Source: a virus
Lineage: Duplodnaviria > Caudoviricetes
Reading direction: 5' to 3' (one strand)
Virus record (IMG/VR): IMGVR_UViG_2660238492_000006
Location: 1 to 64,000 of that record
Length of the DNA stretch: 64,000 nucleotides
The position numbers and the translations under genes are program-made. Shown here in pieces: positions 2,026-52,031 of this stretch (positions are counted from its first letter, which is position 1; each line of letters begins with the position of its first letter). Under the pieces are notes generated by a model. That model saw nothing but the letters and a program-made list of their open reading frames with translations, did not search any database and was not told the origin of the DNA.

Positions 2026-2040
2026 TTGTTAATCTCCTTT

Positions 2041-2418: not shown

Positions 2419-2644
2419 AATGTCACCCTCCTCTTTTAGTTTTGCATATCGCTTAAGCGTTTGTTGTGCGTGATTTTTTTCTTAAGTAATATGTAATCTA
2501 AAGTGTAGGATAAAATGTTGTGTTAGCTATAGGGTTAGTTGTAGGGGAATATATGTGTCCCCTATAAACTAACTTTTTTAATTGTTGTGATTACTATATT
2601 CGACTAACTCAATAAAATAGAGAGTATGCTGTAATAAATAAAAT

Positions 2645-3223
2645 TTAAAATAAAAAGGAATGCAGATTATTGTAGTGTAAATCTGTATATATTACATCAA
2701 AGTTGGACGAGTTATATCTAACATCATTTAGGCTTGGACGAGATATTATGACAATAGGAAAAGTTCCATAGCATTGTTTTTGAAGTGTTCCTTCTCTATA
2801 TAATTTCTCATAAAGTTGCATTTTTATATTAGAAGTGTAATGAGTGTAGTCTACTTCTAATATAATAAAGTATAAGTTATTTTCTAAAGTGAACTCTATA
2901 TAGGCATCTGGTCTAATGAGTCTTTTTAAATATTGAGGTTGGAGTTTTATTTGGCGTATTTCTCCACCTCTTTTCTTTACTACCTTTAGAAAGTCATATA
3001 CCAACAGCTCATGGTCCTTTAATTTCTTTTCTTGATAATAAATCTTTTCTCTTGAAAATTGACTTATATAACTCTTTAATAGTTCCATATCTTCTAACTG
3101 TTTAAGCCTTCTTCTACAACTCTCATAAGTTCCATTAAAGAATAATTCTGTTGCTTGTGGCACGCTTATAGCTTTATAATCTTCTATCCATTTTAAAACT
3201 TGTCTATCCCTCTCTGTTAGCAT
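2645..3223 (-). CDS. replication-relaxation (Replic_Relax)-like protein
   Basis: MLTERD..L winged-helix start, HELLV, IRPDAY, LEVD motifs; coupled to the FtsK gene. Confidence 0.7.
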   Translation of the reverse strand: MLTERDRQVLKWIEDYKAISVPQATELFFNGTYESCRRRLKQLEDMELLKSYISQFSREKIYYQEKKLKDHELLVYDFLKVVKKRGGEIRQIKLQPQYLKRLIRPDAYIEFTLENNLYFIILEVDYTHYTSNIKMQLYEKLYREGTLQKQCYGTFPIVIISRPSLNDVRYNSSNFDVIYTDLHYNNLHSFLF

Positions 3224-4469
3224 TCTTTATTTCCTCCAAACTTATTACACCTTTTCTTTTCCTTTTCTCTTGTACAGGCTTAATATCTTCTATAGGTACA
3301 TCTATAATAGTTGGAGCTTCTATCATTAGTATTTGTCCATTTTCCTTTTTTACATTTAATATTTGTTGCTTTTCTTCTTTGGTTGGAATCCTAATTTCAG
3401 AAACATATTTATTTAATATAACAAAATCATCATCTATATAAGGCACTTTAATATTTATTTCACCATTAGATCCACAAACAATGCACTCACCTTTTTTTAA
3501 CTTCATAGCATTATTAGAATTAATTACATTTTGAGAATCTATAATAGAATTTTGATGAAATGTAATTCTAGTCATTTGTGATTTTACATCTGTATTTAAA
3601 TTAGTTGCTGTAGTCCTTTGTAATGCTCCAATTAAATGTACACCTACACTTCGCCCTGCTTTAACTACTTGCCACAATTCTTCCCATACTGGCAATTCCA
3701 TTAGTTCTGACATTTCTTCACAGATTAAGATTACTCTTTTCATTTTTTTACTTTTAAAATGTTTATTCCATTGATTTATATTTCTTATACCATGTGCTTT
3801 AAACAGATTACTTCTATCATCTATTTTCTTTTTAACCTTATTTATTGCTATCAATAATTCGTTGCAATTATAAGCTACCATTTTTACTGGCAAACAATCT
3901 TCAAATGAACTTATCTCTCCCTTTATTAGTTGAGTAAGATATAATTCTATATTCTTAGAGCTGTTATATATTAAGTTTGTTAATATACTTGATAATAACA
4001 TTGATTTTCCATAACCTGTTGCTCCTGCTATTAATAACATTGGATGTTCATCTAAATTTAAAAAATATGGTTGTCCTTTATAATCTCTTCCTATATAAAG
4101 TTGATTTTCTCTACATTTAACTGGTTCAAAATAGAACTTAGCAATATCTTTATTAATCGCATATAGCCTTATATCATTATTAAATTTATCTTTTTCTATA
4201 TTAATTATTGAATTTAAATTGCATTCCAGTATATTTAATTTACTTTCTAAATGTTCTATACTTAAGCCTTTAACATTGTTCAAATGAGCTATATATCCAT
4301 AATTGGTTGTTTCAAGCTTATATATACTAAATGTTTCATCTTGCCTGTTTCTAATTCCTGTAGCATTCATTATTTCATTAAAATCATTCTTAAATTTTCT
4401 TTCATCTGCTGTATTTAAATAGTTATACATATAAGTACCTGCTATAGCTAAACCTAATTCAACAAACAT
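3204..4469 (-). CDS. FtsK/SpoIIIE-domain ATPase
   Basis: Walker A GATGYGKS, ILICEE, GRSVGVHLIGALQR. Confidence 0.9.
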   Translation of the reverse strand: MFVELGLAIAGTYMYNYLNTADERKFKNDFNEIMNATGIRNRQDETFSIYKLETTNYGYIAHLNNVKGLSIEHLESKLNILECNLNSIINIEKDKFNNDIRLYAINKDIAKFYFEPVKCRENQLYIGRDYKGQPYFLNLDEHPMLLIAGATGYGKSMLLSSILTNLIYNSSKNIELYLTQLIKGEISSFEDCLPVKMVAYNCNELLIAINKVKKKIDDRSNLFKAHGIRNINQWNKHFKSKKMKRVILICEEMSELMELPVWEELWQVVKAGRSVGVHLIGALQRTTATNLNTDVKSQMTRITFHQNSIIDSQNVINSNNAMKLKKGECIVCGSNGEINIKVPYIDDDFVILNKYVSEIRIPTKEEKQQILNVKKENGQILMIEAPTIIDVPIEDIKPVQEKRKRKGVISLEEIKNANREG

Positions 4470-4627: not shown

Positions 4628-4790
4628 ATCTATTCTCCTTTCTTAAATATTTTTCCGGATAATATATTTCCCCCAAAGTTTGTTTAATTTCATCTCCTCT
4701 GTCCTCCATCTCAAACAATCTTTTATATAATTCTAATTCTTTTTTAGAAGTAGTTTTAAAACTAATCCTTATTACTAAAGCTTGGCTCAT
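4620..4790 (-). CDS. small RHH-like DNA-binding protein (56 aa)
   Basis: MSQALVIRISFKTTSKKELELYKRL...; AAGGAG RBS. Confidence 0.6.
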   Translation of the reverse strand: MSQALVIRISFKTTSKKELELYKRLFEMEDRGDEIKQTLGEIYYPEKYLRKENRYV

Positions 4791-4888
4791 TTTTAAACTC
4801 CTTTTTGTTAATTCTATACTCTATACTATGCAGAAACTTTATTAAACTTTCCTAAAATTTAATAAAATATAAAAAAATAAGAGTAGGT

Positions 4889-5062
4889 TTATTCCCTACT
4901 CTTAAGCATTTTTTCATATATTAACTGTTTTAGATAAGAACTTTTGCCAATTACCTTACTATTTTTTGCTAAAAAACTGTACAATTCCATATCCAGTTCA
5001 TTTTCCTTGTTAAATGTAGCTTCTGCTTTTTCATATTCATACTTTCCAACCTTTTTAGTCAC
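4889..5062 (-). CDS. small RHH-like DNA-binding protein (57 aa, GTG start)
   Basis: MTKKVGKYEYEKAEATFNKENELDMELYSFL...KSSYLKQLIYEKM; GAGGTGG RBS. Confidence 0.6.
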   Translation of the reverse strand: MTKKVGKYEYEKAEATFNKENELDMELYSFLAKNSKVIGKSSYLKQLIYEKMLKSRE

Positions 5063-5185
5063 CAAACCACCTCTATAATAATTTTACTATATTTTGTAAA
5101 TAATATCCACATAGTATATATTTTACAATTTAGTTTTATTAATATATAATGGTAATAATTAGGCTAGACTGGTGGTGATTTTTAA

Positions 5186-5392
5186 ATGTTATACCTTTTA
5201 GGAGCTGTTATAGCAATACTTTTGTTTTTCTTGTTCAGTGGACAAGTTAATTACTTTCTTAATTCAAACTATGTTATTCCAACAATAATAATTATTATTT
5301 CTATAATTTTAATAAAGTTTATAATTGTAAATCCCATAATAAATGCCCTACATAATAATAAAAGGAAAAATAAAAAAGTTAAAAGGTGGTAA
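5186..5392 (+). CDS. small two-TM membrane protein
   Basis: two hydrophobic segments, basic tail, GGTGGTG RBS. Confidence 0.6.
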   Translation: MLYLLGAVIAILLFFLFSGQVNYFLNSNYVIPTIIIIISIILIKFIIVNPIINALHNNKRKNKKVKRW

Positions 5393-5778
5393 AAGATATG
5401 AGAAAAATATTAATGAAAATTTTTAGTATGCTATTTATAAGTTGTACGTTATTTTCAACTAATGCTTTTGCTGGAACTTGGACACCACATGAAGGATATA
5501 ATGGTGTTGCTGTATCATGGGAATATTATAACGATGATGGTAGTATGCCTATAGAATGGAAATATATCGATGGATATTGGTATTACTTTGAAGATGGGAT
5601 TACAAGAACAGCACCTCTAAAGGAGAATGGAAAATGCTATTATTTTAATAGTGATGCTCAATTACTTACTAATCAATATGTTAAAGTTGGTAGCGGTAAA
5701 TATGGTTTTTGGTATTGGGCAGATAGTTCTGGTGCTATTAATTATGATTATAGTTGGTTACCTGAAAATTTATCTTAA
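5386..5778 (+). CDS. secreted cell-wall-binding-repeat protein
   Basis: signal peptide plus WKYIDGYWYYF-type repeats. Confidence 0.8.
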   Translation: MVKDMRKILMKIFSMLFISCTLFSTNAFAGTWTPHEGYNGVAVSWEYYNDDGSMPIEWKYIDGYWYYFEDGITRTAPLKENGKCYYFNSDAQLLTNQYVKVGSGKYGFWYWADSSGAINYDYSWLPENLS

Positions 5779-5941
5779 AACTAAAGCAGTAAGTAAGATT
5801 AATTCTTTACCTACTGCTTTTATTAATGCATATTATCACTAGTTTTGGTCAATGATTTTAATATAAGAGAAATATAACTTTAAATCTCCTGTTATCTTTT
5901 TCTTTGTAATTTCCTCTTAAGATTATATCGCATATAAAAAT

Positions 5942-5979
5942 AAGGGCAATACATAGATATTTCTCTACATACTGCCCTT
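5942..5979. terminator. terminator hairpin, homologous to 48983-49020
   Basis: AAGGGCAATACATAG...CTACATACTGCCCTT. Confidence 0.6.
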
Positions 5980-6104
5980 AAGTAGTTTATATTACAAAAT
6001 AGTATTCTCTAGCTACTGTTTAATCTTTTCTAAAAACATTGTATCTCTTTATATAGTAAGCTATAATTAAATTATAAATCATCATTCAAAAGGAGGTACT
6101 ATTT

Positions 6105-6299
6105 ATGTTTAAAGAAATGAAAAAGTTATTAAATTATCATTTTGAAAAAATGCAAACTTTTAATAAAGAAAATGAAATTAATAAATTAAATATAGCTGAA
6201 AAAAATGATTCTTTTTCTAAAGTTTTAAATAATAAAATAGCATCTTCTGAATCTAGAATATCAGAACTTAGAAAATCTATTCAAAATACAAAGCTATAG
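6105..6299 (+). CDS. hypothetical coiled-coil protein
   Basis: AGGAGG RBS; overlaps the 3' end of the convergent gene. Confidence 0.5.
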   Translation: MFKEMKKLLNYHFEKMQTFNKENEINKLNIAEKNDSFSKVLNNKIASSESRISELRKSIQNTKL

Positions 6300-7185
6300 G
6301 CATAACTATCTTCATATTTTCATTAAACCCAAGAAAGTTTATATATAGTTCTTTAAATGTCTGCTCTAGAATTGTATTTATTTCTCCAAAAGCAGTTTCT
6401 CTTTCATTTTCCTTATTCATGGAATTTTTCAATGTACTTGTAAGTTTACCCAATATCTTTATTTTGCCAGAATAATTAAATTTTATTTGATTTAAAGATT
6501 CTCTTAAGTATTTATTTGTTATAGGAATTAAGAAATTTTCACAAATTATAAATTCTGAATATGGTATCATACTACCTATAATTTTAAATATTTTTTTATA
6601 TCCTAAAAATTCATTACATGAATTTTTTTTTATTGTTTCTATTTGTTTTTCTTTAGTTTTTTTAACATTGGAACTCATATTAGTTGCATTTGCTTCAAAT
6701 TCATTTCTTAAATCTCCAATAGTCGTTTCACCCATAAAATCAATAAACTCATCTGTAAAAATATTAGTTAAATATTCTAAATCTCTAATTGCAAAATTGT
6801 TATTAATCTCTAAGTAATCGCCTATTTTGCATTCTGATATATTATTTATTAATTTTTCTTTTTTTAAATATGATACAAGTAAATCAAATGCATTATCATG
6901 TAATATTTTTTCAATTAACTCTTTACCAATTTCTGTTTGAGATAATGTATTAGTAGTACTTAATGAATCTTTATCTTCTGATAGTGTAAAATTTAAAAGT
7001 GGTTTAAATCCTATTTCAGTTTTAAAACTTCCTTTGTTAGGCTGAGAAGTTTCCATTTTCGTTGTTGCTACTTCATCTGCTGTTTCAGCAACTGTTGATT
7101 TTAAAAGTCCTCCGTTTATTTGTGATAGATAAGAATTTAGTGTATCTGTATCTAAATATACAAAATGTCTCATAATATCCTCCAT
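6277..7185 (-). CDS. DUF6414-like accessory protein
   Basis: N-terminal FVYLDTDTLNSYLSQI.GG and C-terminal PIALY resemble DUF6414. Confidence 0.6.
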   Translation of the reverse strand: MEDIMRHFVYLDTDTLNSYLSQINGGLLKSTVAETADEVATTKMETSQPNKGSFKTEIGFKPLLNFTLSEDKDSLSTTNTLSQTEIGKELIEKILHDNAFDLLVSYLKKEKLINNISECKIGDYLEINNNFAIRDLEYLTNIFTDEFIDFMGETTIGDLRNEFEANATNMSSNVKKTKEKQIETIKKNSCNEFLGYKKIFKIIGSMIPYSEFIICENFLIPITNKYLRESLNQIKFNYSGKIKILGKLTSTLKNSMNKENERETAFGEINTILEQTFKELYINFLGFNENMKIVMPIALYFE

Positions 7186-7556
7186 TATAATATTAAATTT
7201 AACTAAATAAATGATATAATAAAGTTATATTAAACGAACTCTATTATATCTAAGAACTCATTATTGATTGGTAGTCGCATGAGTTCTTTTTTATTGGTTA
7301 TATTTACATAATACTACAAATTGTACAGGTTTTCCATAAGAAGAAAAAGGGTAGCAAATAAGATTTCTCCTATCTGCTACCCTTCGTTTTCTAATTTTAT
7401 GTGTAATTTAGCCACATATATTATATACTATTTCATAGAATAAAACCAACTGCCTAAAATATTGACTTCTATACGACAACTTACACGACACTAGAACCTG
7501 TGTCATACTATTAATATATCTATTTTGCAATTAATTGTTCCTTAATATTAATTATT

Positions 7557-8864: not shown

Positions 8865-10034
8865 TTATTCCACTACAAGAACTGGTATTTTTATTATAAC
8901 TTTTCCTAATGGGGGAATATCTCCAACATTAACTATAATACTTTTAGATGTTGAATTTGAATCAATTGTCCCTTGAGTTGTTATTACTTCACTAGGTATA
9001 AATTGAATATGGTTGGGCGCACTATCATTGATTACTACCTCTTTAGCTGTTTTATCACTTGTGTTAGTAACTTCTATTGTATATGTAAAATTATCTCCTA
9101 CATACACAGAATCTACATCTGCTGTTTTTACAACTTTTAATTGTGCTTCTGCAACTCCCTTAAATATTATAGATACTTGACCACTAGCATTATTAGTATT
9201 ATCTCCTTTGGCATAAGCAGTGTTAATTATATACTCTTGTTCCGGATCTGTTGGTTTAGGTTCAGTATCTTCTTTTGTAACTGTAACTATACAATCAGCT
9301 TTTATATCTGTTCCCTTAATTTGTGCTGTTATTGTTGCTTGTCCTTCTTTTATAGCTTTAACATTACCATTAGAATCTACTGTTGCAATTGCGTCATCTG
9401 ATGATGACCAGTCTATATCTACAGCTGATGGTGTAGTTGTTGCTATTAATTTCTTTGTGTTATTTTCTTTTAAGTTTAATGATGATTTATCTAATGATAT
9501 AGTTGAAATATTTTCATTATAAAGTTTTAATACTTCATTTTCATCTATATCTACTGCATTTATTGTAAGATACTCATCAGTATTATTTACAAGTTCCAAA
9601 CTGTGTTCTTTTTTATTTAAATCTAATTTTTCATAAACTAAAATATTTTCACTACTATTAGTACCATTATTTATAACATATTTATCTATTTTCTTTCCAT
9701 CAATAATTATATCAACATCTTTAGACGTTGTTTGCCAATATCCACAAATTAATCTTAATTTATCACCCGTAAAATTAAATTTTATTTTAGATCCACTATA
9801 GTTATATCTTGAATGTAGAGTTTCTGCCCAGGTTGAACCATAATGCCATCCTTCGCCTATATAAGTTATTTGTTCATCTCCACATTTATACCTTTTCCAT
9901 CCATCTTCTGGTTGAGTTAATTGTTGTCCAACTGTTGCCGCATTAGCTATAGTTCCATTTTTCATTATTCCTACACTCATAATGGTTAATACCATTACAA
10001 GCATTATAAGTATCTTTTTAAAACAATTTTTCAT
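8865..10034 (-). CDS. secreted Ig-like (Big_2) plus DUF11 surface protein, moron
   Basis: signal peptide; WSSSD..IATVD.NG.V.A.KEG.ATIT; LKVVKTAD..V.VGD..TYTIEVTN. Confidence 0.8.
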   Translation of the reverse strand: MKNCFKKILIMLVMVLTIMSVGIMKNGTIANAATVGQQLTQPEDGWKRYKCGDEQITYIGEGWHYGSTWAETLHSRYNYSGSKIKFNFTGDKLRLICGYWQTTSKDVDIIIDGKKIDKYVINNGTNSSENILVYEKLDLNKKEHSLELVNNTDEYLTINAVDIDENEVLKLYNENISTISLDKSSLNLKENNTKKLIATTTPSAVDIDWSSSDDAIATVDSNGNVKAIKEGQATITAQIKGTDIKADCIVTVTKEDTEPKPTDPEQEYIINTAYAKGDNTNNASGQVSIIFKGVAEAQLKVVKTADVDSVYVGDNFTYTIEVTNTSDKTAKEVVINDSAPNHIQFIPSEVITTQGTIDSNSTSKSIIVNVGDIPPLGKVIIKIPVLVVE

Positions 10035-10276
10035 TGTATATTATTTCTCCCTTGTTTCCATTATTGAACGCGTTCATAAATTATTTTAACTTTATATATG
10101 GTAAAATCCAACAATAATCGTAATACAAATTCCCTTATATCTAAGAAATTTAGTAAATTTTTACTATTTAGAATATAGTTTCTTTTAACTCTTTGTTTTA
10201 CAGGCAATAAAAAAGACACCTTAATAGCGCCAATCTATTGCCTACTATTTTATTTATCCTCTATTCCTATTGCGAA

Positions 10277-10471
10277 CTAAATTACAGGTGTAATTAATAC
10301 TGTAAATTCTGAATATTGCTCTGTAGTAATCTTATTTCCTGCAAGGAAAATATCCATAGTTTCTTGAATACTCTTAAACTCCTTAACTTCATTTTTAAAC
10401 TCTGCATTAATTCTGTTCTTTAAAATTCTTCCTAATAATTCTTGCATTTTTGTCATTTTACATTCCTCCAT
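10277..10471 (-). CDS. small tail-fibre-associated protein (XkdX-like position)
   Basis: DIFLAGNKITTEQYSE; identical to 50424..50618. Confidence 0.7.
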   Translation of the reverse strand: MEECKMTKMQELLGRILKNRINAEFKNEVKEFKSIQETMDIFLAGNKITTEQYSEFTVLITPVI

Positions 10472-10769
10472 TTTCTACAACTTTATTTTTTTCTGTTTCT
10501 AAAATAGTTTTTTCTACATTAGTAACAGTAGTTTCATCTGTATTATCTAAGTATGTTTTTATATCATCTACTCTTGTATTTTTATCTCTTACAATTACTT
10601 TACTGTTTTCTGTATCTACAGAAACTAATTCTTTACCGTTCTCTATATCTGCAACTAAACAATTATAATTATCTTCTATACTAGTTCCAGACGTAGAAAA
10701 AATAATTTTTCCCAAAGAATTATATATTACTAAAGTTTTCATTTTTTCTATTCCTCCTACTCTCCCCAC
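10458..10769 (-). CDS. tail-fibre-associated/chaperone protein
   Basis: MKTLVIYNSLGKII; follows the fibre gene; near-identical to 50605..50916. Confidence 0.7.
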   Translation of the reverse strand: MGRVGGIEKMKTLVIYNSLGKIIFSTSGTSIEDNYNCLVADIENGKELVSVDTENSKVIVRDKNTRVDDIKTYLDNTDETTVTNVEKTILETEKNKVVENGGM

Positions 10770-11953
10770 GCATTAAATGGAAAATTTCCTGTACTTACAC
10801 TGCTTGATATTGATAGAATCTTTTTTGTAGAATCATAATATATTCCACTTACAGAATTTGAAGATTGAAAAGGATAAAAGCTTCCTCCTACTTTTGTTAT
10901 ACATACATATGGATATTGTGAATATGATGAATTAGGTTGATCTACTGTTATTGATCCAGCATTAAAATTTAGAAATATTTCATCTCTAGTACCATTAGTA
11001 TGATTTATAACTCCTTCCAAGAAATTTTTTCCACCCATACCTTGAATACTTATATTAGCTATTTTAGAAACTAAACTAGCCAAAGCTTCGTTTCCACTAG
11101 CACTTACACCTTTGCTATTAAGATTACTAGCTGTTGTATTCTTATCTGTTTGTATTCTATTTGCTATCTCTGCATGTGTATTGTTTCCTGTAATATTTCC
11201 TACCTTGCCAGCAATAGCATTTTTACCATTACTGGCAAATGTAAAAAGTTCTTGTATTCCTGATTGTACATTCTTTGCAGACATACCATTAATTGTTGCA
11301 AGATTAACCTTAGTTGCACTCAAGTCTATATTAGCTACTGTATTTTTTAAATCCTCTAACTCTGTCTTACTTGCCTTATTGTTCGCAATATCTTTCGATT
11401 GTTCAGCAAGCTCCGATAATTTTTTATCTATACTTTTATTAATTTCCTTCTGATTACCACCACTTATTACTATAAATGTTGTATTAGTGTTTTTGACTCC
11501 ATAATCAAAAGTTAGATTACTTAATTCAACTGTAACATTAGCTGCATTTCCAATAGCAGCTTCTATATCATAACTCCAACTGAATGGCCCACTAGTTGCA
11601 GGTGCATAATAATCACCATATTTACCTGCTGTTCCGTAAGCATAGAGTACCTCTCCATCGTCAGGATCTTCAGCAAAAAGACCAATCTCACATATATATG
11701 TTGCTTCTATCATAGAACTATTGTCTATTTTCCCTGAAATTACAGCAATTTTCTGCTCTGTATTTGGAGTTATGCTTTGAATGCCAACATCAAATTTTGG
11801 CTCTATTAATGCTAATAATGTTGCTGGATTTCTTGAATCAATATCCCCTGATCCTACCATCATTTTAGTAAATTTTATTTCTTGTCCTGCTTGAGCTTTA
11901 ACATATAGTAGCTGACCTTTTGTTGTTAAAGTCATATTATTAAATATTGCCAT
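10757..11953 (-). CDS. tail fibre (phage A N-terminal anchor plus shared C-terminus)
   Basis: N-terminal collar-like EIGLFAEDPD..EVLYAY; C-half shared with 50904..52031 from KDIANN onward. Confidence 0.85.
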   Translation of the reverse strand: MAIFNNMTLTTKGQLLYVKAQAGQEIKFTKMMVGSGDIDSRNPATLLALIEPKFDVGIQSITPNTEQKIAVISGKIDNSSMIEATYICEIGLFAEDPDDGEVLYAYGTAGKYGDYYAPATSGPFSWSYDIEAAIGNAANVTVELSNLTFDYGVKNTNTTFIVISGGNQKEINKSIDKKLSELAEQSKDIANNKASKTELEDLKNTVANIDLSATKVNLATINGMSAKNVQSGIQELFTFASNGKNAIAGKVGNITGNNTHAEIANRIQTDKNTTASNLNSKGVSASGNEALASLVSKIANISIQGMGGKNFLEGVINHTNGTRDEIFLNFNAGSITVDQPNSSYSQYPYVCITKVGGSFYPFQSSNSVSGIYYDSTKKILSISSSVSTGNFPFNAWGE

Positions 11954-31753: not shown

Positions 31754-32455
31754 CTATATACTCTGATTTTTTGTTTCATTAATTATTTCTTTTTTATATT
31801 TATAATAAGTGTTTCTTGCAAGGCCTATTAACTTCATTGCTTCAACATCTTTAAGAGTACCTCCAAAATCTTTACTGTATTTTTTTATTTGTTCCTTTGC
31901 TGAAATACTCTTTTTAGTAGTTAATTTAATACCCACTTGCTGCCCTATTTGTTTTCCATTAAGTCTTGCTGTTTCTATTCCTTCTTTTGTTCTTTGCTGT
32001 AAGTCCTTAACTTCCTTTTCAGATTGATTAAAAGCTATCTTTATTTGCTCTTTTGCTAGTGCTAATAAAAAATTATTAATGCCTTCAATAATAAAGTCAA
32101 CGTTCGTTCCTGTCATTTCAAAATTATTTGTAAGTGCTTTCTTATATGTCTCTGTATTTATATGTTGCTCTTTTATGAATACCAACTCAACACCTTTATT
32201 AAATAATTCCTCATATAGTTTAAATCCCTCCTCTGCATTTCTACTCATTCTACTTACAGAATCAAATACAATAGTATCACCTTTAGAAATATTACCTAAT
32301 AACTTTTTAAACTCTTTACGACCTTGAACTTTAGTTCCAGTAAATATTTCATTAATTATTATTGCACTTGGATATAATGCACTAATATTTCTATGTTGTC
32401 TTTCAATACTTTGTTTATTAGTTGATATTCTACAGTAACCATATATTTTATTCAT
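31754..32455 (-). CDS. serine recombinase (resolvase family)
   Basis: YGYCRIST..Q...RQ, GDTIVFDSVSRMSR, RT.EG...A, C-terminal HTH. Confidence 0.9.
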   Translation of the reverse strand: MNKIYGYCRISTNKQSIERQHRNISALYPSAIIINEIFTGTKVQGRKEFKKLLGNISKGDTIVFDSVSRMSRNAEEGFKLYEELFNKGVELVFIKEQHINTETYKKALTNNFEMTGTNVDFIIEGINNFLLALAKEQIKIAFNQSEKEVKDLQQRTKEGIETARLNGKQIGQQVGIKLTTKKSISAKEQIKKYSKDFGGTLKDVEAMKLIGLARNTYYKYKKEIINETKNQSI

Positions 32456-32842: not shown

Positions 32843-33499
32843 TTATAAATCTTTATCAGCTATTTTACCAGCATCCTCTAACATAATATCTTTAAGTCCC
32901 AAATAACGTTTTGTTTCTTCTATAGATTGGTGATTTAAAGCAACTCTAACTTTTTCTATATTATGATTAGAGTTCTCATAAATTGTAGTAGCATAAGTCT
33001 TTCTAGGACTATGCCCACTTATATGTTTTAATCCAATCTTTTCACCAACATCTTTTAATATAGCACTATATGATTTTTGACTTATATATTCATCTCCCTC
33101 ACCTTTATTAGATGGAAATGCAAATTCTTTTCTTTTTTTATTTTTAATATATTCTTCTAAATATTTTTTTAATGAAGAACCTATAATAGCTTTTCTTTTA
33201 TCAGGCTTCTTTCTGTTAGGATGTTCTGCTAAACTACTTTGCCATTGTTTAAATTGCTTACTCTCCTGGATTAGAAAAAATCCTTCACTTAGTGCATCAT
33301 CAATTTCTCCAATTGTAAGTCCAACAAGATCACCTAATCTATATCCTGTAGCCCTAGCTAATAAAAATAATGTTATATTTCTGTCAGCATACTTTTTACT
33401 ATGCTCTATTAATGATTCTTTAAATCTCTTATATTTATTATCTGGTATAGGTAAGGCAGTTCCTTTTTCCCAGTTCCTTTTCTTATCTTCATCCACCAT
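32843..33499 (-). CDS. small tyrosine recombinase (catalytic domain only)
   Basis: TGYR.GD, HSPRKTYA, LNHQS, TKRYLG: the R-H-R-H-Y residues are present. Confidence 0.9.
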   Translation of the reverse strand: MVDEDKKRNWEKGTALPIPDNKYKRFKESLIEHSKKYADRNITLFLLARATGYRLGDLVGLTIGEIDDALSEGFFLIQESKQFKQWQSSLAEHPNRKKPDKRKAIIGSSLKKYLEEYIKNKKRKEFAFPSNKGEGDEYISQKSYSAILKDVGEKIGLKHISGHSPRKTYATTIYENSNHNIEKVRVALNHQSIEETKRYLGLKDIMLEDAGKIADKDL

Positions 33500-35825: not shown

Positions 35826-35994
35826 TCCTTAATTTGTTTTAATTTATCTTATAAATATATTGTACGATATTTTCTTACACATTGCAATAGTTTTGTAGGA
35901 AATTTTCTTACAAATATTTCGACAAAAAAGGATTAATAATAAACTTTATACTACACTATTCAATTTTCAAAGAACAATTTTTTATTTAAGTTAC

Positions 35995-36021
35995 TACATC
36001 ATATATACATATTGCGAACTA
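35995..36021. other. dyad recombination-like site TACATCATA-TATACA-TATTGCGAA
   Basis: abuts the TAG of 36019..36312. Confidence 0.6.
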
Positions 36022-36312
36022 ACTTAGTTTCAATTTTGTACCATATTCCTTATTGTGTATGTCTACTAATTTTTTAACTTTTTCTATATAATCAACAAAA
36101 TCATTTTTATCTTTTATAGCTTCATATTTTACTTTTGTCCCTTGCTTATTTGTCTTATATATTTTTTTAACCTTAAATCCATCTTTGCATTTTTCTATAT
36201 ATAACCCTAATATCACTAAATCATAATCTTGCTTTTTATTTTCCTTAAATTCTAAATTAATTTTTGGATATGTTTCTGTAAATCCTAAAACGGATACTGC
36301 AGCATTATTCAT
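36019..36312 (-). CDS. phage early hypothetical protein
   Basis: ORF with RBS. Confidence 0.6.
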   Translation of the reverse strand: MNNAAVSVLGFTETYPKINLEFKENKKQDYDLVILGLYIEKCKDGFKVKKIYKTNKQGTKVKYEAIKDKNDFVDYIEKVKKLVDIHNKEYGTKLKLS

Positions 36313-42300: not shown

Positions 42301-44595
42301 TTAGTGTGGTAATTTAGTAATAAATTTTGCATATCCATCATTACATTTTATAAGATTTAAACTATAGTATCTTTTTAGGTTTAATAGATCATCTAATTCG
42401 AAAGGTTCTAATTCTTGTTTTAACTCTAAATAATTATCTTTATTGCATCCTGCAATAAGCATATAGCTTGTATTAGCACTTTTTAATTCTGGTCTTATAT
42501 ATTTTATTTGCTCTAAACTATGACAGCTTATAATTGATTTTGCTGTTTTTTTAGCAATTTGATTAAGTTTAATTTTTAAAAATGTTTGGCAACAAGGGAC
42601 TTGATATAATTCATCAAAAAACAGATTTACTTTTACTCTATCTTCTTCTTTTAATATGCTATGCCTTTGTTGTAATGCTCCCCATATCTTATTAATCCAA
42701 TAAGTACAGTATACATCTTTTTCTTCATCTGTACTAAACATTGTTTCTTTCATTTTTAAACAAATAAGTTGATTCTTTTGCATTTCTTGTACTAGATTTA
42801 TATTATTGCTGCAATCTTTTTTTAACATTAATTCCATATAAACATTACTTTTAATAACATCCAATCTATTTAAAATTCCTTGAATATATGAAACCTTAGT
42901 ACCTACAACTTGTGGTTCTTTGGTTTTACACCAATCATCTAATTCTTGCAATGCTAATACATATTCTTCTAAGTTACTTCTTTGAGTAGATTGTATTTTA
43001 TCTATAAATTGCCTTCTAATTTTATAATCTTCTAATACATTAAATACATCTTTAATACTTCCGTTACTTATAAAGACAACTAAACTACTTGCTTTTAAAT
43101 ATCTATTCATACGTGGCTCTAATTCATTATCTATATTAATAGAATTAATAAAATTAACTAATTGTGCTGTTTGCATTTTAGCACTTTTATATACTTCAAA
43201 AGTATTATTACTATCTGCAAATATTTCATTAAAGCCTAATCCTTGTAATTCATCAAAATTTGAGCAATCAATATTTAATATTTTCTTTTTATCAATTGCA
43301 TAACTAACATCATTGGAAAACTCACACTCTCCACAAAAGTCAAATATTATTGAACACTCATTATTATCTATAGAATCTTTTACTAAATGTTTTAATAATG
43401 TAGTTTTTCCGCTTCTTGTAGGAGCAATAGCACATAATGTTAAATTCCTAAAATCCTTATCTGTACTTAAATATGCTTTTGAACTTTTCCCCTTACATAT
43501 ATTTGAACCTATACACATAGTTCCTTCCAACAACTCTACAGGAATTGGAGTTTCTGTTGTTTCTATATGATTTATTTTAAAATCTTTTAGTAGGTGATCT
43601 GCTGGTATCTGAATAAAATTTTGACATTCATCACTAGAGCACATATTTATATCTATTTTATAATCATAATCTTCTATGTTTATTGTTTTTTTAACTTTTT
43701 TATATATTAACTCATTATCCTCAGATAAGACATTATAAGATTGACATATACTTAAAGCGTTATTCTCTTGTCTAGTTTTATCAATGCTGTCTGAAATAAC
43801 TGCAATCTGAGTATTAATTATAGTAGCTTCTTTCTTTTTCTTTGTATTTTTAGATGTATCATTTTGTTGTCCTATAATAGACATAACATTTTTATACAAG
43901 CTTTCATTATCTTTATTAGTGTTTCCTCCTGTAAAGTCTTGTAATACTTCTAAAATGCAATCTAGTGTAGTTAAAACAGTACCTAAAATAGCCTTTAATA
44001 TATATTCAAAACTTGTTATTTTCTTTTCAAGTGGTTTATTATTCTTAACCTTATTTTCCATTTCTTCATAGCGTTCTTTCCAACCAATTTGGCGTATAGG
44101 CATAAAATTATAAGCTATTCTTAATCTATCTGTATCTTGCATTATATCCATTACATTTAAAATAGAATTTAATGGTTCATTATTTGTTTTATTTACATTC
44201 AGACTAAGCGCATCATCTTTTTTATAGTTTAATGAATAAGTAGTAGAATTTACTGAAAATGTTGGTATATCTTCTACTTCTTTTATAGTAGCTTTTGACC
44301 ATATTTCACTAATTTTTTCTAAAATTATAGATTTATAGATAACTGGAACTAAAAAATAGAAATTAGCATTATTCTTTTCTATATCAATAATATAAGATAT
44401 TTTAAAGTTAGTTTCTATAAATATCTTTTTTTGTTCCTTATGAACACGTTTATTAATGCTTTTATATGTGTGTGAAATAGCTTTGGCAATATTGCTTGAA
44501 TTATAATTCCTAATAGATCTGTGTGGTACTATTTGAATATATGTGTATGTTGGATTGATTAATTGAAAATAATTACTTAATTTTATAGCTTCCAT
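42301..44595 (-). CDS. large FtsK/HerA/VirB4-like P-loop ATPase
   Basis: Walker A APTRSGKT, IFDFCGE, Walker B LFFDE. Confidence 0.75.
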   Translation of the reverse strand: MEAIKLSNYFQLINPTYTYIQIVPHRSIRNYNSSNIAKAISHTYKSINKRVHKEQKKIFIETNFKISYIIDIEKNNANFYFLVPVIYKSIILEKISEIWSKATIKEVEDIPTFSVNSTTYSLNYKKDDALSLNVNKTNNEPLNSILNVMDIMQDTDRLRIAYNFMPIRQIGWKERYEEMENKVKNNKPLEKKITSFEYILKAILGTVLTTLDCILEVLQDFTGGNTNKDNESLYKNVMSIIGQQNDTSKNTKKKKEATIINTQIAVISDSIDKTRQENNALSICQSYNVLSEDNELIYKKVKKTINIEDYDYKIDINMCSSDECQNFIQIPADHLLKDFKINHIETTETPIPVELLEGTMCIGSNICKGKSSKAYLSTDKDFRNLTLCAIAPTRSGKTTLLKHLVKDSIDNNECSIIFDFCGECEFSNDVSYAIDKKKILNIDCSNFDELQGLGFNEIFADSNNTFEVYKSAKMQTAQLVNFINSINIDNELEPRMNRYLKASSLVVFISNGSIKDVFNVLEDYKIRRQFIDKIQSTQRSNLEEYVLALQELDDWCKTKEPQVVGTKVSYIQGILNRLDVIKSNVYMELMLKKDCSNNINLVQEMQKNQLICLKMKETMFSTDEEKDVYCTYWINKIWGALQQRHSILKEEDRVKVNLFFDELYQVPCCQTFLKIKLNQIAKKTAKSIISCHSLEQIKYIRPELKSANTSYMLIAGCNKDNYLELKQELEPFELDDLLNLKRYYSLNLIKCNDGYAKFITKLPH

Positions 44596-47036: not shown

Positions 47037-47789
47037 TTATTTCATTCTTTTTATGATTTCGTAATACAGATCTTTATAAGGTTCTGCATACTTTTTATTG
47101 TAATCTTGTATTGTTATATTTGATGCAACAGCTTCTTTATATTTTACACTATTATTTATAATTGTTTTGAATACATCTTCTGTAAGTTCTTCTGTTATAA
47201 CTTCATTTATTTGTTTTGAAAATATAGTCTTTTTATCAAAATTATTTCTTAATATTCCTAATAATTTTATATCTTCATTTACACGATTTTCTTTTATTGT
47301 CGTAACAAGATTATCAACTAAATTCAATCCTTGAAGTGCTGATGTAGAATTATCTATTACCTCTATGTAATAATTACTCATACACATAGCATTAGTTGTA
47401 CATAAACCTAAAAATGGTGAATTGTCTATTATTATTACATCATAATTATTCTTAAATTTTTCAAATTTATTTTTTAATATGGTTTCTCTTGTTATCTTAT
47501 TATGAAGTTCTGATTCTAAGACAGCACTTTCAATCGTGTTTGGTATTAAATCTATCATTTCATTGTATTGTGCTATACAATCCTTAAAATTCACTTTAGA
47601 ATTAGAATACAAATCATATAAATTATATTCAGCTTCAACATTTAAAATTTGACTTAAATTTGATTGGCTATCATTATCTATTAATAAAACTTTATGTCCT
47701 TGTTTTGCGAATTGTCCTGCTAAATTTACACAAGTAGTAGTCTTACCAACTCCTCCTTTAACATTTATTATTGATATAATATCGCACAT
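47037..47789 (-). CDS. parA: ParA/Soj partition ATPase
   Basis: KGGVGKTT, LLIDND.Q.N, YDVIIIDNSP. Confidence 0.9.
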   Translation of the reverse strand: MCDIISIINVKGGVGKTTTCVNLAGQFAKQGHKVLLIDNDSQSNLSQILNVEAEYNLYDLYSNSKVNFKDCIAQYNEMIDLIPNTIESAVLESELHNKITRETILKNKFEKFKNNYDVIIIDNSPFLGLCTTNAMCMSNYYIEVIDNSTSALQGLNLVDNLVTTIKENRVNEDIKLLGILRNNFDKKTIFSKQINEVITEELTEDVFKTIINNSVKYKEAVASNITIQDYNKKYAEPYKDLYYEIIKRMK

Positions 47790-50324: not shown

Positions 50325-50423
50325 TATTAATCCTTCTCTCTATAAAATTAAGCAATAAAAAAACACCTTAATGGTGCTAATCTATTGCCTGATATTTAAT
50401 TTATTCTATATTCCTATTGCGAA

Positions 50424-50618
50424 CTAAATTACAGGTGTAATTAATACTGTAAATTCTGAATATTGCTCTGTAGTAATCTTATTTCCTGCAAGGAAAATAT
50501 CCATAGTTTCTTGAATACTCTTAAACTCCTTAACTTCATTTTTAAACTCTGCATTAATTCTGTTCTTTAAAATTCTTCCTAATAATTCTTGCATTTTTGT
50601 CATTTTACATTCCTCCAT
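50424..50618 (-). CDS. small tail-fibre-associated protein
   Basis: identical to 10277..10471. Confidence 0.7.
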   Translation of the reverse strand: MEECKMTKMQELLGRILKNRINAEFKNEVKEFKSIQETMDIFLAGNKITTEQYSEFTVLITPVI

Positions 50619-50916
50619 TTTCTACAACTTTATTTTTTTCTGTTTCTAAAATAGTTTTTTCTACATTAGTAACAGTAGTTTCATCTGTATTATCTAAGTA
50701 TGTTTTTATATCATCTACTCTTGTATTTTTATCTCTTACAATTACTTTACTGTTTTCTGTATCTACAGAAACTACTTCTTTACCGTTCTCTATATCTGCA
50801 ACTAAACAATTATAATTATCTTCTATACTAGTTCCAGACGTAGAAAAAATAATTTTTCCCAAAGAATTATATATTACTAAAGTTTTCATTTTTTCTATTC
50901 CTCCTACTCTCCCCAC
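50605..50916 (-). CDS. tail-fibre-associated/chaperone protein
   Basis: one residue differs from 10458..10769. Confidence 0.7.
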   Translation of the reverse strand: MGRVGGIEKMKTLVIYNSLGKIIFSTSGTSIEDNYNCLVADIENGKEVVSVDTENSKVIVRDKNTRVDDIKTYLDNTDETTVTNVEKTILETEKNKVVENGGM

Positions 50917-52031
50917 GCATTAAATGGAAAATTTCCTGTACTTACACTGCTTGATATTGATAGAATCTTTTTTGTAGAATCATAATATATTCCACTTACA
51001 GAATTTGAAGATTGAAAAGGATAAAAGCTTCCTCCTACTTTTGTTATACATACATATGGATATTGTGAATATGATGAATTAGGTTGATCTACTGTTATTG
51101 ATCCAGCATTAAAATTTAGAAATATTTCATCTCTAGTACCATTAGTATGATTTATAACTCCTTCCAAGAAATTTTTTCCACCCATACCTTGAATACTTAT
51201 ATTAGCTATTTTAGAAACTAAACTAGCCAAAGCTTCGTTTCCACTAGCACTTACACCTTTGCTATTAAGATTACTAGCTGTTGTATTCTTATCTGTTTGT
51301 ATTCTATTGGCTATCTCTGCATGTGTATTACTTCCTGTAACATTTCCAACCTTGCCAGCAATAGCATTCTTACCATTACTGGCAAATGTAAAAAGTTCCT
51401 GCATTCCAGCCTGTACATTCTTTGCAGACATACCATTAATTGTAGCAAGATTAACCTTACTTGCACTCAAGTCTATATTAGCTACTGTATTTTTTAAATC
51501 CTCTAACTCTGTCTTACTTGCCTTATTGTTCGCAATATCTTTCAATTGGGCGGTTATATCTGTTCTTAATTGTTCTACTTCACCTTTTTTAGCAAAGATA
51601 ATAGTTGGATCTACTTTAAGTTCTACTGTATCTGTATTGACTACACATAAAATTAAATCTAGTAATAATTCTTTAGTAGAACCATCTGCTATTACAGGCT
51701 TATAGGTTTCAGCACATTTACAAATTCCTATAAGATTATTTTCATCATCAAAAGCACCATATTCTCTTATAGTAAATCCTCCAACTGTACTTGGAATCAT
51801 AACTTCTATGTGAATCCAGTTTGGATTTTTTTCATCAACTGTAACATGATTTATATTTCCTTCCCAAACAACATTTTTTAAATCTGTTTGGCCTTCTGTT
51901 GGCTCGTAATATGCTCCTCCTCCATCTCCTATCTTCATTTTTGCAAAGTTTATTTTAGTACCTAAACCTATAGAATTAGCAACTTTAGCTTTTCCTATAT
52001 TGGTTAATATGCTATAAAATTTTTCTGCCAC
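50904..52031 (-). CDS. tail fibre (DUF3751-like N-terminus plus shared C-terminus)
   Basis: LT.IGKAK.AN, GDGGG, GGF.IRE.G.FD, ETYKP...GS. Confidence 0.85.
   Translation of the reverse strand: MAEKFYSILTNIGKAKVANSIGLGTKINFAKMKIGDGGGAYYEPTEGQTDLKNVVWEGNINHVTVDEKNPNWIHIEVMIPSTVGGFTIREYGAFDDENNLIGICKCAETYKPVIADGSTKELLLDLILCVVNTDTVELKVDPTIIFAKKGEVEQLRTDITAQLKDIANNKASKTELEDLKNTVANIDLSASKVNLATINGMSAKNVQAGMQELFTFASNGKNAIAGKVGNVTGSNTHAEIANRIQTDKNTTASNLNSKGVSASGNEALASLVSKIANISIQGMGGKNFLEGVINHTNGTRDEIFLNFNAGSITVDQPNSSYSQYPYVCITKVGGSFYPFQSSNSVSGIYYDSTKKILSISSSVSTGNFPFNAWGE

Follow-up and report, generated by a model that had tools for sequence, protein, structure and literature searches.

How does a phage come by the receptor-binding tip of another? 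Host range is the main limit on the targets of a phage or phage-tail-like particle, and new anchor/tip chimeras between unrelated tails are usually ascribed to rare illegitimate or short-homology recombination. Homologous or short-homology recombination is the textbook route to tail-fibre mosaics, and Tetart is said to have described conserved-motif recombination in T-even distal fibre genes in 1998. The attC site of integrons consists of one imperfect hairpin, about 60-140 bp long, that has GTTRRRY and RYYYAAC cores.

Several described systems come close to the locus reported here. The Acinetobacter dif modules, according to passages of one account, are bounded by inversely oriented pdif sites that react when their spacers are identical or near-identical (PMC13141974). 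In bifidophages, extracts of PMC6109161 present Rin as an armless tyrosine recombinase with 11-bp asymmetric sites and mention a second locus with an 8-bp site and no adjacent enzyme; in both, the crossover sites stand where the constant part of the receptor-binding gene meets the variable part. The R64 sfx sites (Rci), as excerpts of PMC11852207 portray them, consist of one conserved arm, a conserved spacer and a variable second arm, and lie in adhesin coding sequence. Similarly, in portions of PMC3157838, short conserved stretches, with crossovers within, are reported to flank the hypervariable specificity segments of T-even distal fibre and gp38 adhesin genes.

The window analysed here, the whole stretch of 64,000 nucleotides, comprises positions 1 to 64,000 of IMG/VR record IMGVR_UViG_2660238492_000006 (Caudoviricetes; Clostridium provirus). 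The same tip cassette occurs in two different tails of this one provirus, and its edges coincide with two members of a short-site family. Literature on clostridial tail-fibre mosaics and on invertible fibres served by tyrosine recombinases yielded no description of these sites, and the motif strings led only to unrelated papers among the matches listed.

Results

One tip cassette in two contractile tails

The cassette, its sites and its neighbours are the following.

10215..10231, minus strand: intrinsic terminator hairpin downstream of the cassette, inside the left flank of about 83% similarity
10252..10277, minus strand: S2 copy 1, with the inner arm at 10268-10277 (gene strand GTTCGCAATA), the spacer at 10262-10267 (gene strand GGAATA) and a degenerate outer arm at 10252-10261
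10277..10471, minus strand: 64-aa ORF, last cassette gene; phrog_2310, a family without assigned function
10458..10769, minus strand: 103-aa ORF, second cassette gene; no family match, counterparts in related loci starting MKTLIIY..
10757..11395, minus strand: codes for the tip of fibre 1, 212 aa that begin with K-D-I-A-N and run to the stop
11381..11406, minus strand: S1 copy 1, with the inner arm at 11381-11390, the spacer at 11391-11396 (gene strand GAAAGA) and a degenerate outer arm at 11397-11406
11396..11953, minus strand: anchor part of fibre 1; 186 aa, phrog_7037 type
50399..50424, minus strand: S2 copy 2; arm 50415-50424, spacer 50409-50414
50424..50618 and 50605..50916, minus strand: copy 2 of the 64-aa and 103-aa ORFs
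50904..51542, minus strand: tip-coding part of fibre 2
51528..51553, minus strand: S1 copy 2; arm 51528-51537, spacer 51538-51543, outer arm 51544-51553
51543..52031, minus strand: anchor part of fibre 2; 163 aa, with the PF12571 tail-collar fibre N-terminal domain at residues 1-149

On the minus strand, the cassette encodes the last 212 amino acids of a tail fibre followed by two small ORFs. Fibre 1 has 398 residues (10757..11953) and lies directly downstream of a gene for a DUF2612 baseplate protein; fibre 2 has 375 (50904..52031). Neither the fibres nor the small ORFs found a match among solved structures or in NCBIfam. By its position we take the 64-aa ORF at 10277..10471 to be XkdX-like, and the two small downstream genes are probably needed for fibre assembly. 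The original prediction spoke of two unrelated tails. They are not wholly unrelated, both being contractile-tail baseplates with Baseplate_J, but the N-terminal parts of the two fibres are barely alike, with a weak common motif (BLASTP E 0.024).

The copies at 10262-11396 and 50409-51543 are 98.8% identical: aligned at a constant offset of 40147, they differ at 14 of 1135 positions. The coordinates predicted for them proved exact, as did the break at the hexamers: the first mismatches, at 10261 and 11397, stand directly outside both. The weaker leftward similarity that had been noted in the terminator continues through it down to about 10203 (44/59 matches ungapped, about 83% gapped). On the right, ATTG (11398-11401) is the sole remaining match before the sequences diverge (25/60). 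Thirteen of the 14 mismatches are clustered in 11162-11313, a pattern that shows a patch brought in by ordinary recombination.

Two sites at the cassette edges

TATTGCGAAC at 10268-10277 and GTTCGCAATA at 11381-11390 form the perfect 10-bp inverted repeat that had been predicted, each with its 6-bp outer extension (TATTCC on the left, TCTTTC on the right). The right site reads in frame as K-D-I-A-N in both fibres and, as foreseen, joins different anchors to the same tip: ..LAEQS in the 398-aa fibre, ..ITAQL in the 375-aa fibre. The inner arm of S2 copy 1 overlaps the TAG stop of the last cassette gene by one base. The length of the repeat is in itself unremarkable, since perfect inverted repeats of 13, 11 and 10 nt are present in the same 1.7 kb; its significance lies in its position. 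For random 21- and 17-nt blocks drawn from the window, the probability of an inverted match of at least 10 bp was 0.0004. With 40-nt blocks it was 0.003, or 0.0095 when direct repeats were counted too.

Each site in the window has one good arm, and the outer arms match at 5/10 (S1) and 3-4/10 (S2) positions. If the spacers are taken to set the orientation, S1 and S2 repeat a dyad site in the same direction. S1 keeps the right arm and S2 the left, and the inverted repeat is therefore better described as an attL/attR-like pair.

Conservation and shuffling among relatives

In the first group of related loci, S1 (GAAAGA-TATTGCGAAC, read as K-D/E-I-A-N) is present in 24/24, and S2 (GTTCGCAATA-GGAWNA, after the stop) in all 23 with enough downstream sequence, counts that are not independent events since every one of these loci comes from related Clostridium proviruses. 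The distance between the two sites ranges from 1097 to 2155 bp. A search that started from S2 by itself gave 18 stretches, 13 of them with S1 upstream; of the remaining five, the upstream sequence is shorter than 220 bp in four, and the fifth (L110) has an unrelated context. A DNA scan with the S2 17-mer gave 14 stretches, 4 from Clostridium and 10 unrelated. Two further loci, in Clostridium genomes (L125 and L136), contain both sites. The cassette itself had no blastn match in 50,697 phage records, and a scan of genome contigs with the tip protein found no relative.

In the loci of the first group, six anchor types are paired with four unrelated tip types in 12 ways, and the joint is always K-D/E-I-A-N/K. 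Synonymous conservation of the in-gene motif, put forward with the original prediction as a check, is borne out by rare codons. The Ala codon at S1 is GCG in 24/24 loci, against 3.3% of Ala codons in 16 structural genes of the window, and the Asn codon is AAC in 21/24, against 8.5% of Asn codons in the same genes. At S2, the same bases are conserved in non-coding DNA. The constraint acts at the nucleotide level.

The two arms of a site are conserved to very different degrees: inner arms agree with the consensus at 9.6-9.7 of 10 positions, outer arms at 4.6 and 3.9, and background at 2.7, and most sites of the window's own phage group have one good arm only. Counts of ATTGCGAAC over 0.9 Mb of related records come to 36, compared with 2 for the reversed control. 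Conservation halts sharply 6 bp past the arm in at least six different downstream contexts. A T/A polymorphism at S1 position 7 strictly tracks neither anchor nor tip.

Homology breakpoints

Tracts of at least 93% identity, followed over about 5.5 kb per locus, have 140 internal ends. Eighteen fall in a 41-bp interval at S1 and 15 in a 43-bp interval at S2, so that breakpoints cluster at both motifs in other phages, as had been anticipated. Of 16 tract ends in a second phage group, 8 are located at the site. Five whole-cassette tracts common to different anchors start 4-9 bp before GAAAGA. Their right ends are ragged, at +22 to +275 bp beyond S2, and S2 is mostly followed by a conserved intergenic region of roughly 90 bp. 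Contigs from four other sequencing runs break at 10262, 10285 and 11402-11406. Recurrent breakpoints at 11022-11027, 11102 and 11236-11237 have no motif, and 23 of the 140 tract ends are inside the cassette. Ordinary homologous recombination is also at work around the cassette.

Full dyads, spacers and other module junctions

The sites of the family have as their consensus a 26-bp dyad of 10-6-10 form: GTTCGCAATA, a 6-bp spacer and TATTGCGAAC. In one relative (L048), S1 is GTTCGCAATT-GAAAGA-TATTGCGAAC, with 9+10 of the 20 arm bases. Full 10-6-10 dyads are likewise found at S1 of L049, at an S2-type site in G022:C18 and at junction sites in G019, G009 and G022:C54, and dyads at other junctions read GTTCGTAATA-TTTACA-TATTGCGAAT; the reversed-pattern control gave one match in all 22 genomes or records. 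The architecture of two arms and a spacer that had been proposed is complete in relatives, whereas the window sites have one good arm each.

The second, AT-rich phage group has a perfect dyad, GTTCGCAATA-TAAAGA-TATTGCGAAC, at S1 in a receptor-binding gene. It is present at all 13 S1 sites, reads S-S-Q-Y-K-D-I-A-N and places rare TCG and GCG codons in the coding sequence. The S2 dyad of this group, with the spacer TAAAAA, directly follows a stop codon: in 3/4 loci it lies 2.1-2.4 kb downstream, in L147 behind the preceding gene. The S2-type sites of L145 and L148 are full dyads. The spacer is 6 bp long in every dyad. At S1 it is invariant within each group (GAAAGA in 24/24, TAAAGA in 13/13); at S2 it is GGAATA in 14/23, with GGAWNA variants in the remainder, and TAAAAA in 4/4 of the second group. 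The S1 spacer equals the S2 spacer of the same locus in none of 27 loci, which is what the predicted idea of different spacers requires.

The window contains a third site with the same arm.

35994-36019, minus strand: S3, CTACATCATA-TATACA-TATTGCGAAC, abutting the stop of the ORF 36019..36312

S3 is accompanied by a conserved box of roughly 40 bp (35945-35982), and the whole feature, 35945..36019, is at an early/late module junction. An unrelated Coat_F cassette is 95% identical between G019 and G022:C54, with homology ending no more than 10 bp from the same arms on both sides. We also considered that S3 might serve for prophage attachment, a junction in G019, at 29954, having first been taken as a phage/host border. 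This reading was dropped when comparison of G019 with G022:C54 and the window placed the Coat_F genes inside the phage, between the late-regulatory and early modules.

A metagenome scan for the full dyad gave 66 loci in 44 distinct contexts. Only eight belong to the phage S1 type, with the spacer TAAAGA, and about 20 are REP-like palindromes beside housekeeping genes, on contigs of about 0.4 GC. We take these as coincidence, since by our estimate a perfect hairpin fixes only 10 bases.

Candidate recombinases and recombination products

Two genes of the window are candidates for the enzyme.

31754..32455, minus strand: serine recombinase, second candidate; 233 aa, Resolvase N-terminal domain
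32843..33499, minus strand: tyrosine recombinase, candidate; 218 aa, PF00589, catalytic domain only, with weak XerA/XerC/XerD likeness below cut-offs

Both are about 20 kb from the sites and missing from most related records. Among 20 such records, many of them incomplete, four have homologues of the 218-aa recombinase of about 200 aa, seven match it at E <= 0.001, and two to four have the serine recombinase. The two Clostridium genomes with the sites gave no recombinase match at E <= 1e-8. A tyrosine recombinase of any kind is encoded in 14/25 records, and in 7/7 of those at least 90% complete, at no fixed position relative to the sites. Same-arm sites are found 1.3-3.2 kb upstream of 3/5 close homologues of the recombinase and of the window's own gene.

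No inverted-cassette junction was seen among 80 S1 matches, and no circle-type junction (left part of S2, right part of S1) among the 8 viral-contig dyads or the metagenome dyads. Contigs of the four runs showed no strand-changing joint at the sites; these are Logan contigs, from which rare variants are dropped and none of which spans the whole stretch, and the absence of such joints is weak evidence since these contigs cannot show rare rearrangements. On the host side, a candidate chromosomal dyad, GTTCCCAATA-TACTTG-TATTCCTAA, is present in 12/41 genomes of the genus and is no commoner there than the reversed control (13 matches against 11). For C. beijerinckii and C. perfringens no dif could be predicted (PMC3025954); the one predicted for C. 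botulinum, in supplement file 2 of PMC3025954, agrees, by our count, at only 13/27 positions. Published Clostridium dif predictions are missing or dubious.

Discussion

What are S1 and S2? Sites with this anatomy, conserved among relatives, standing where anchors and tips are shuffled and breakpoints cluster, and existing as full dyads, may bound a mobile receptor-binding cassette as sites of the tyrosine-recombinase type, in analogy to the Acinetobacter dif modules. Drawn from sequence comparison and analogy, this is the reading we favour, with as much in our judgement to be said for it as against it. We propose that the 1135-bp segment would be an exchangeable receptor-binding cassette bounded by two members of one short-site family. 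S1, in the fibre gene, retains the right arm and the spacer GAAAGA, translated as K-D/E-I-A-N; S2, from the last base of the final cassette stop codon, retains the left arm and the spacer GGAWNA. The nearly invariant cassette-facing arms and the degenerate outer arms would then be the attL/attR pattern left by an element with a perfect-dyad site. By conservative site-specific recombination, as carried out by tyrosine recombinases, cassettes would shift from one fibre anchor to another across tail types, S1 pairing with S1 and S2 with S2. The unlike spacers would stop S1 x S2 recombination, and hence deletion of the tip. That an enzyme acts on the sites, which one it would be (a phage Xer-like protein or a host Xer) and where the strands would cross, we infer.

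Could the edge repeat be meaningless, and the segment the product of a simple gene conversion that two prophages underwent recently? DNA as AT-rich as this has many perfect inverted repeats of 10-13 nt, and this one was picked out by inspection, after the fact; the positional chance is nevertheless only 0.0004-0.01, the motifs recur in 23/23 loci and in a second phage group, and ATTGCGAAC outnumbers its reversed control (36 vs 2 in 0.9 Mb). The comparative data refute this reading, to which we give almost no credence. Very improbable, and largely refuted, is an on/off switch like Gin/Cin/Min or Rin, in which a recombinase flips the segment between the inverted arms. Inverted 10-bp arms do stand at the fibre constant/variable junction, as in Mu, P1, p15B and, by the extracts of PMC6109161, bifidophage Rin, and the same prophage encodes small tyrosine and serine recombinases. 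But the cassette ORFs are all on the fibre strand, with no opposite-orientation tip in the 8 loci with ORFs listed, and a flipped state would read K-D-I-A-N and then TAA at once. All 24 first-group loci are 'on', with no inverted junction among the S1 matches; the recombinases are distant and mostly missing from relatives; and the similarity of their spacers makes the sites direct, not inverted. The long cassettes of L049 and L081 (2.1 kb), considered as Mu-type double cassettes, have only a longer tip or extra same-strand ORFs.

The sites might instead be kept for gene expression, as an RNA or DNA hairpin, through long-range S1:S2 pairing in the mRNA or by binding a regulator, and mark breakpoints incidentally as the sole conserved sequence there. 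Full dyads would indeed form 10-bp hairpins, S2 and S3 always abut a stop codon, a T-rich run follows the S2-type dyad of L145 in terminator-like fashion, and the same palindrome stands between A and T runs, like a bidirectional terminator, in unrelated metagenome contigs (L160, L164, L165, L220). We nevertheless regard this explanation as improbable. S1 and S2 of the window's group are not hairpins (outer arms 3-5/10), the real terminator is 30-60 bp further on, a terminator within the fibre gene would be harmful, a dimeric regulator would require both arms, and the metagenome palindromes are, by the estimate given above, expected by chance. It is implausible that a 10-bp helix should bridge 1.1-2.1 kb of translated RNA. 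In L009 both arms carry a matching change, but in about 10 of 11 variant loci the arm variants have no compensating change, and S1-S2 RNA pairing was dropped as a main reading for this reason. The explanation with S1 and S2 as conserved linkers, where RecA or a phage annealing protein, together with selection for working fibres, puts crossovers without a dedicated enzyme, is the main rival, one that we hold to be unlikely while giving it real weight. A short sequence common to unrelated modules, with homology breakpoints within, is what such linkers would look like and what we find. The motif-free breakpoints and the 23 tract ends within the cassette speak for it, as do the divergent patch within an otherwise identical tract, the ragged right ends, the ordinary homology supplied by the conserved intergenic region after S2, and the fact that we found neither a recombination product nor a linked enzyme. 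Against it, homology of 16-26 bp is at or under the usual minimum for RecA-dependent exchange, and linkers leave much unexplained: the mirror orientation of the identical 10 bases (chance 0.0004-0.01), the full 10-6-10 dyads with rare TCG and GCG codons in coding sequence, the conserved yet never-alike S1 and S2 spacers, and the sharp stop of conservation 6 bp past the arm in at least six downstream contexts.

Boundary sites of a tyrosine-recombinase type remain our preferred reading, and we tentatively extend it, with somewhat more doubt than confidence. Receptor-binding tips in AT-rich Firmicutes phages could be true mobile cassettes that have a circular form with a perfect 26-bp site and enter, in frame, a weak K-D-I-A-N docking site where any fibre anchor ends. 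S1 and S2 would be left behind as an attL/attR-like pair, and heterospecific spacers would prevent loss of the cassettes. The same site family would bound other modules, such as the Coat_F cassette and the early/late junction. The whole would be a phage-borne counterpart of integron and dif-module systems, rewiring host range between unrelated tail machines and possibly tailocin-like elements too.

If true, a 26-bp site that is translated at the joint and repeated after the cassette would provide a specific, testable mechanism for the exchange of host-range modules, and would tell at which points natural fibres allow cutting and rejoining. To our knowledge, recombination-site-bounded modules have so far come from Acinetobacter plasmids and integrons; they would now extend to virion structural genes. 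Even as passive linkers, the motif would be a practical marker of the fibre constant/variable boundary in at least two phage groups.

How does the locus compare with the known systems? The conserved motifs of T-even fibre genes, in contrast to the sites here, are protein-structural repeats that have no mirror relation, dyad or spacer classes and are served by the phage general recombination system. Integron cassettes resemble this one in that a recombination site comes directly after an ORF and the cassette would move as one piece. Unlike attC, the arms TGCGAAC and GTTCGCA misfit the cores and are 1.1-2.2 kb apart; the window copies have no second hairpin arm within 150 bp, and no IntI-type integrase or attI was found. 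Gin (Mu), Cin (P1), Min (p15B) and Rin, like the system here, use a short crossover site exactly at the junction of a constant N-terminal and a variable C-terminal part, and the variable part moves with downstream helper genes. Those systems have several opposite-orientation tips per genome, flipping and an invertase next door, whereas here there is one tip per locus, 0/24 are inverted, no recombinase is adjacent and variation is between genomes only. The R64 shufflon sfx sites, as far as the excerpts describe them, share one-arm conservation and a location at the constant/variable boundary of an adhesin gene, but they are 12-7-12 in form and unrelated in sequence, and Rci performs inversion only, within one replicon.

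Finally, there is a likeness to the Acinetobacter dif modules of XerC/XerD. In the passages of PMC13141974, as here, two inverse sites present the same arm inward, the spacer is 6 bp, the modules recur across many backbones, and relatives have one module in place of another; our tip cassette is found in its 12 anchor/tip combinations and the Coat_F cassette in G019 and G022:C54. The present sites differ in their 10-6-10 form, in their sequences and in their mostly degenerate outer arms. One of them is in a reading frame and translated, and the cargo is a phage receptor-binding tip in place of a plasmid accessory gene.

The provirus and its duplicated tip cassette

The provirus record spans 89,678 bp, and the window, its first 64 kb, holds two contractile-tail modules; all genes discussed here are on the minus strand.

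Tail modules and fibres in the window
~6-33 kb, minus strand: module 1, with Baseplate_J, DUF2612, a DUF3383 sheath-like protein, portal and terminase
10757..11953, minus strand: fibre 1 (module 1), 398 aa
from ~48 kb, minus strand: module 2, with Baseplate_J, a Mu Gp48-like protein, sheath and tube
50904..52031, minus strand: fibre 2 (module 2), 375 aa; residues 1-149 are a PF12571 tail-collar fibre domain

The N-terminal parts of the two fibres have only a weak motif in common (E 0.024). Their tips belong to a duplicated cassette: at an offset of 40147, positions 10262-11396 and 50409-51543 differ at 14 of 1135 positions, and each copy codes for the C-terminal 212 aa of its fibre and contains two ORFs, of 103 and 64 aa. 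Beyond this tract the copies first differ at 10261 and 11397. Leftwards, ~83% similarity runs through an intrinsic terminator (hairpin 10215-10231) down to ~10203, while to the right the copies diverge past ATTG. Thirteen of the 14 differences fall within ~150 bp (11162-11313) with identical sequence on either side; this stretch looks as if ordinary recombination in the conserved island 11022-11237 had brought in a patch from a third source.

At the cassette's left edge, TATTGCGAAC (10268-10277) adjoins the stop codon (TAG) of the 64-aa ORF; at its right edge, GTTCGCAATA (11381-11390) lies inside the fibre gene and, with the adjacent hexamer, is read K-D-I-A-N. The shared segment and edge repeats described in the original prediction are all present. 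In a window of 28% GC a perfect 10-bp inverted repeat is unremarkable as such. The chance of an inverted match so placed at the edges is 0.0004 for random 21- and 17-nt window blocks, 0.003 with 40-nt blocks, and 0.0095 when direct repeats are included; the repeat is unusual by its position, not by its length.

Several other features of the region deserve mention. The near-identical 1.2-kb direct repeats (10203-11402 and 50350-51549), 40 kb apart and in the same orientation, could delete the intervening DNA by homologous recombination. A 389-aa secreted protein (8865-10034) with CE2_N, Big_2 and DUF11 domains, encoded between the cassette terminator and BhlA, the holin of prophage 1, looks like a moron; a related locus (L005) encodes a 411-aa counterpart at the equivalent position. 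Prophage 1 is itself flanked by mobile genes that are not phage-like (window 1-7200 and 42301-47789), and several elements seem to have been pieced together in the "provirus" record.

Genes flanking prophage 1
2645..4469: Rha-like regulator, Replic_Relax and FtsK/SpoIIIE proteins
6277..7185: DUF6414 protein
42301..44595: 764-aa protein without a family
47037..47789: ParA

Two sites bound the cassette in related loci

A search with the tip protein returned 12 viral loci, and a search for the exact in-gene site, S1, added 10 further fibre loci. Counting both window copies, S1, of the form G-AAAGA-(T/A)-ATTGCGAA-(C/G/T), is in the fibre of 24/24 loci. The second site, S2, of the form (A/G)TTTAG-TTCGCAATA-GGAWNA, is found past the stop codon of the last small ORF in all 23 loci with enough downstream sequence, 1097-2155 bp from S1. 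When the search was begun from S2, S1 was upstream in 13 of 18 matches; four of the remaining five are truncated by contig ends and one is in an unrelated context. Two loci from Clostridium genomes, of C. aquiflavi and of an uncultured Clostridium, have the pair as well. Across the 0.9 Mb of related records there are 36 occurrences of ATTGCGAAC versus two of the reversed control, and the former are nearly always part of S1/S2-type pairs.

Within S1, Ala is encoded by GCG in 24/24 loci and Asn by AAC in 21/24; their shares of the Ala and Asn codons across 16 structural genes from the window are 3.3% and 8.5%, respectively. S2 has the same bases as the S1 arm, in non-coding DNA. Conservation stops 6 bp past the arm in no fewer than six different downstream contexts. 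Of the 10 consensus positions, inner arms share 9.6-9.7 and outer arms 4.6 and 3.9, with a background of 2.7. Judged from codons and non-coding bases, the constraint on both sites is one that acts at the DNA level.

Tips are shuffled at S1 and S2

Six types of N-terminal anchor (three are domains 163-194 aa long, the other three short heads with 36-47 aa) and four unrelated types of tip occur in 12 combinations, and the joint is invariably K-D/E-I-A-N/K. Near-identical tracts shared between loci have 140 internal ends, of which 18 fall in the 41-bp window around S1 and 15 in the 43-bp window around S2, in ~5.5 kb per locus. Five tracts span the whole cassette across different anchors; each starts 4-9 bp ahead of GAAAGA, and their other ends are +22 to +275 bp beyond S2. 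Contigs of four other sequencing runs break at 10262, 10285 and 11402-11406, and also at 11027 and 11236-11237. The tract ends and contig breaks together identify S1 as a sharp breakpoint hot spot and S2 as a softer one. That breakpoints would cluster at the motifs, and that the motif would be kept at synonymous positions, had been foreseen in the original prediction; the tract ends at the two sites and the invariant GCG bear it out.

S1 and S2 as halves of one dyad

In one locus (L048) S1 is the full dyad GTTCGCAATT-GAAAGA-TATTGCGAAC, and near-dyads occur in L049 and at an S2-type site of a related genome (G022:C18). Likewise, GTTCG(C/T)AATA-N6-TATT(G/C)CGAAT is found at other junctions of three related records (G019, G009 and G022:C54), with one match in the control. 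Set beside these sites, the S1 and S2 arms prove to be two halves of one dyad.

A second AT-rich phage group carries the perfect dyad GTTCGCAATA-TAAAGA-TATTGCGAA(A/C/T) within its receptor-binding gene, read S-S-Q-Y-K-D-I-A. Another dyad, with spacer TAAAAA, lies directly past a stop codon. The distance downstream is 2.1-2.4 kb in L145, L146 and L148, and L147 has this dyad behind the preceding gene instead, 1.7 kb ahead of S1. Upstream homology in this group stops at the site's right edge and downstream homology begins at its left edge, and 8 of 16 tract ends are at the site.

Spacers read G-A/G-A-A-G/T-A in the first group and TAAAGA/TAAAAA in the second. By its spacers, the pair forms direct repeats of one site, the right arm being kept in S1 and the left in S2, which is why an inverted repeat was originally seen. 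The pair has the look of attL and attR. S1 and S2 spacers are identical within a locus in 0 of 27 cases.

The same arms at other modules

A third site in the window, S3 (CTACATCATA-TATACA-TATTGCGAAC, 35994-36019), lies at the stop codon of ORF 36019..36312, on the boundary between the early and late modules, and the operon with a small tyrosine recombinase is 2.5 kb downstream. S3 adjoins a conserved ~40-bp box (box plus site, 35945-36019), and G019 and G022:C54 have this box next to full dyads as well. Of the three box-plus-site copies in G019, two enclose a Coat_F cassette that this record has in common with G022:C54 at 95% identity; on either side, homology ends no more than 10 bp from the arms.

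Coat_F cassette with the same arms at its edges, in a phage and in a contig
G019:C1:29880-31890 (L118, L139)
G022:C54:3640-4640 (L137, L141)

On the G022:C54 contig there is also a series of small accessory modules (ParA fragment, MerR/TipAS, DUF2268, isochorismatase, HxlR), each delimited by arm-plus-hairpin or box-plus-arm elements. In metagenome contigs of GC ~0.4 (L156-L217), the same 26-bp palindrome, with spacer GTGTAC, GTACAC or GTATAC, sits inside a longer repeat, with many copies beside housekeeping genes (cysS, APS reductase) and sometimes two copies 2.2 kb apart. This is a REP-like element whose match to the phage site is most likely accidental. Scaffolds of Nonlabens xylanidelens (Bacteroidota; L124, L126, L134) hold at least three copies of a repeated element containing TTTTAGTTCGCAATAGGAA.

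Candidate enzymes

Two small recombinases are encoded next to each other, just upstream of the terminase genes.

Small recombinases of the window
within 31754-33499, minus strand: serine recombinase, 233 aa, Resolvase domain, weak likeness to Mpi invertase
within 31754-33499, minus strand: tyrosine recombinase, 218 aa, catalytic domain only

Together with ParA (47037..47789), they could resolve multimers of a plasmid-like prophage. No enzyme is linked to the sites: among the related records, ~200-aa homologues of the tyrosine recombinase are in 4 of 20 (7 of 20 match at E <= 0.001) and the serine recombinase is in 2-4 of 20, and the two Clostridium genomes with sites have no close match. As a class, tyrosine recombinases occur in 14 of 25 records, in no fixed position. 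Three of five close homologues of the 218-aa enzyme have half sites 1.3-3.2 kb upstream.

Discussion

What are S1 and S2? We favour, with about even confidence, the proposal that they are tyrosine-recombinase-type sites with heterospecific spacers, at which tips would be exchanged site-specifically. A more tentative possibility is that they are conserved linkers of the kind treated in PMC3157838; ordinary recombination is clearly at work in the cassette region, and additional recurrent breakpoints there are free of the motif, as this explanation would have it. We consider it unlikely that the two sites are instead an expression element. An invertible switch is very improbable. In data able to reveal common forms, the cassette was never seen inverted, excised or circular. 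Chance receives almost no credence from us as the source of the edge repeat, given the probabilities of 0.0004-0.0095 for an edge-placed match and the recurrence of S1 and S2 in every locus that could show them.

Word and motif searches of the literature, with subscription journals mostly outside their scope, returned no description of S1/S2-type sites. If S1 and S2 are indeed recombinase sites, their closest counterpart in logic is the dif module of Acinetobacter (PMC13141974), and the closest to S1 in position are the invertible fibre junctions of Rin (PMC6109161) and, likewise, the one-armed sfx sites (PMC11852207).
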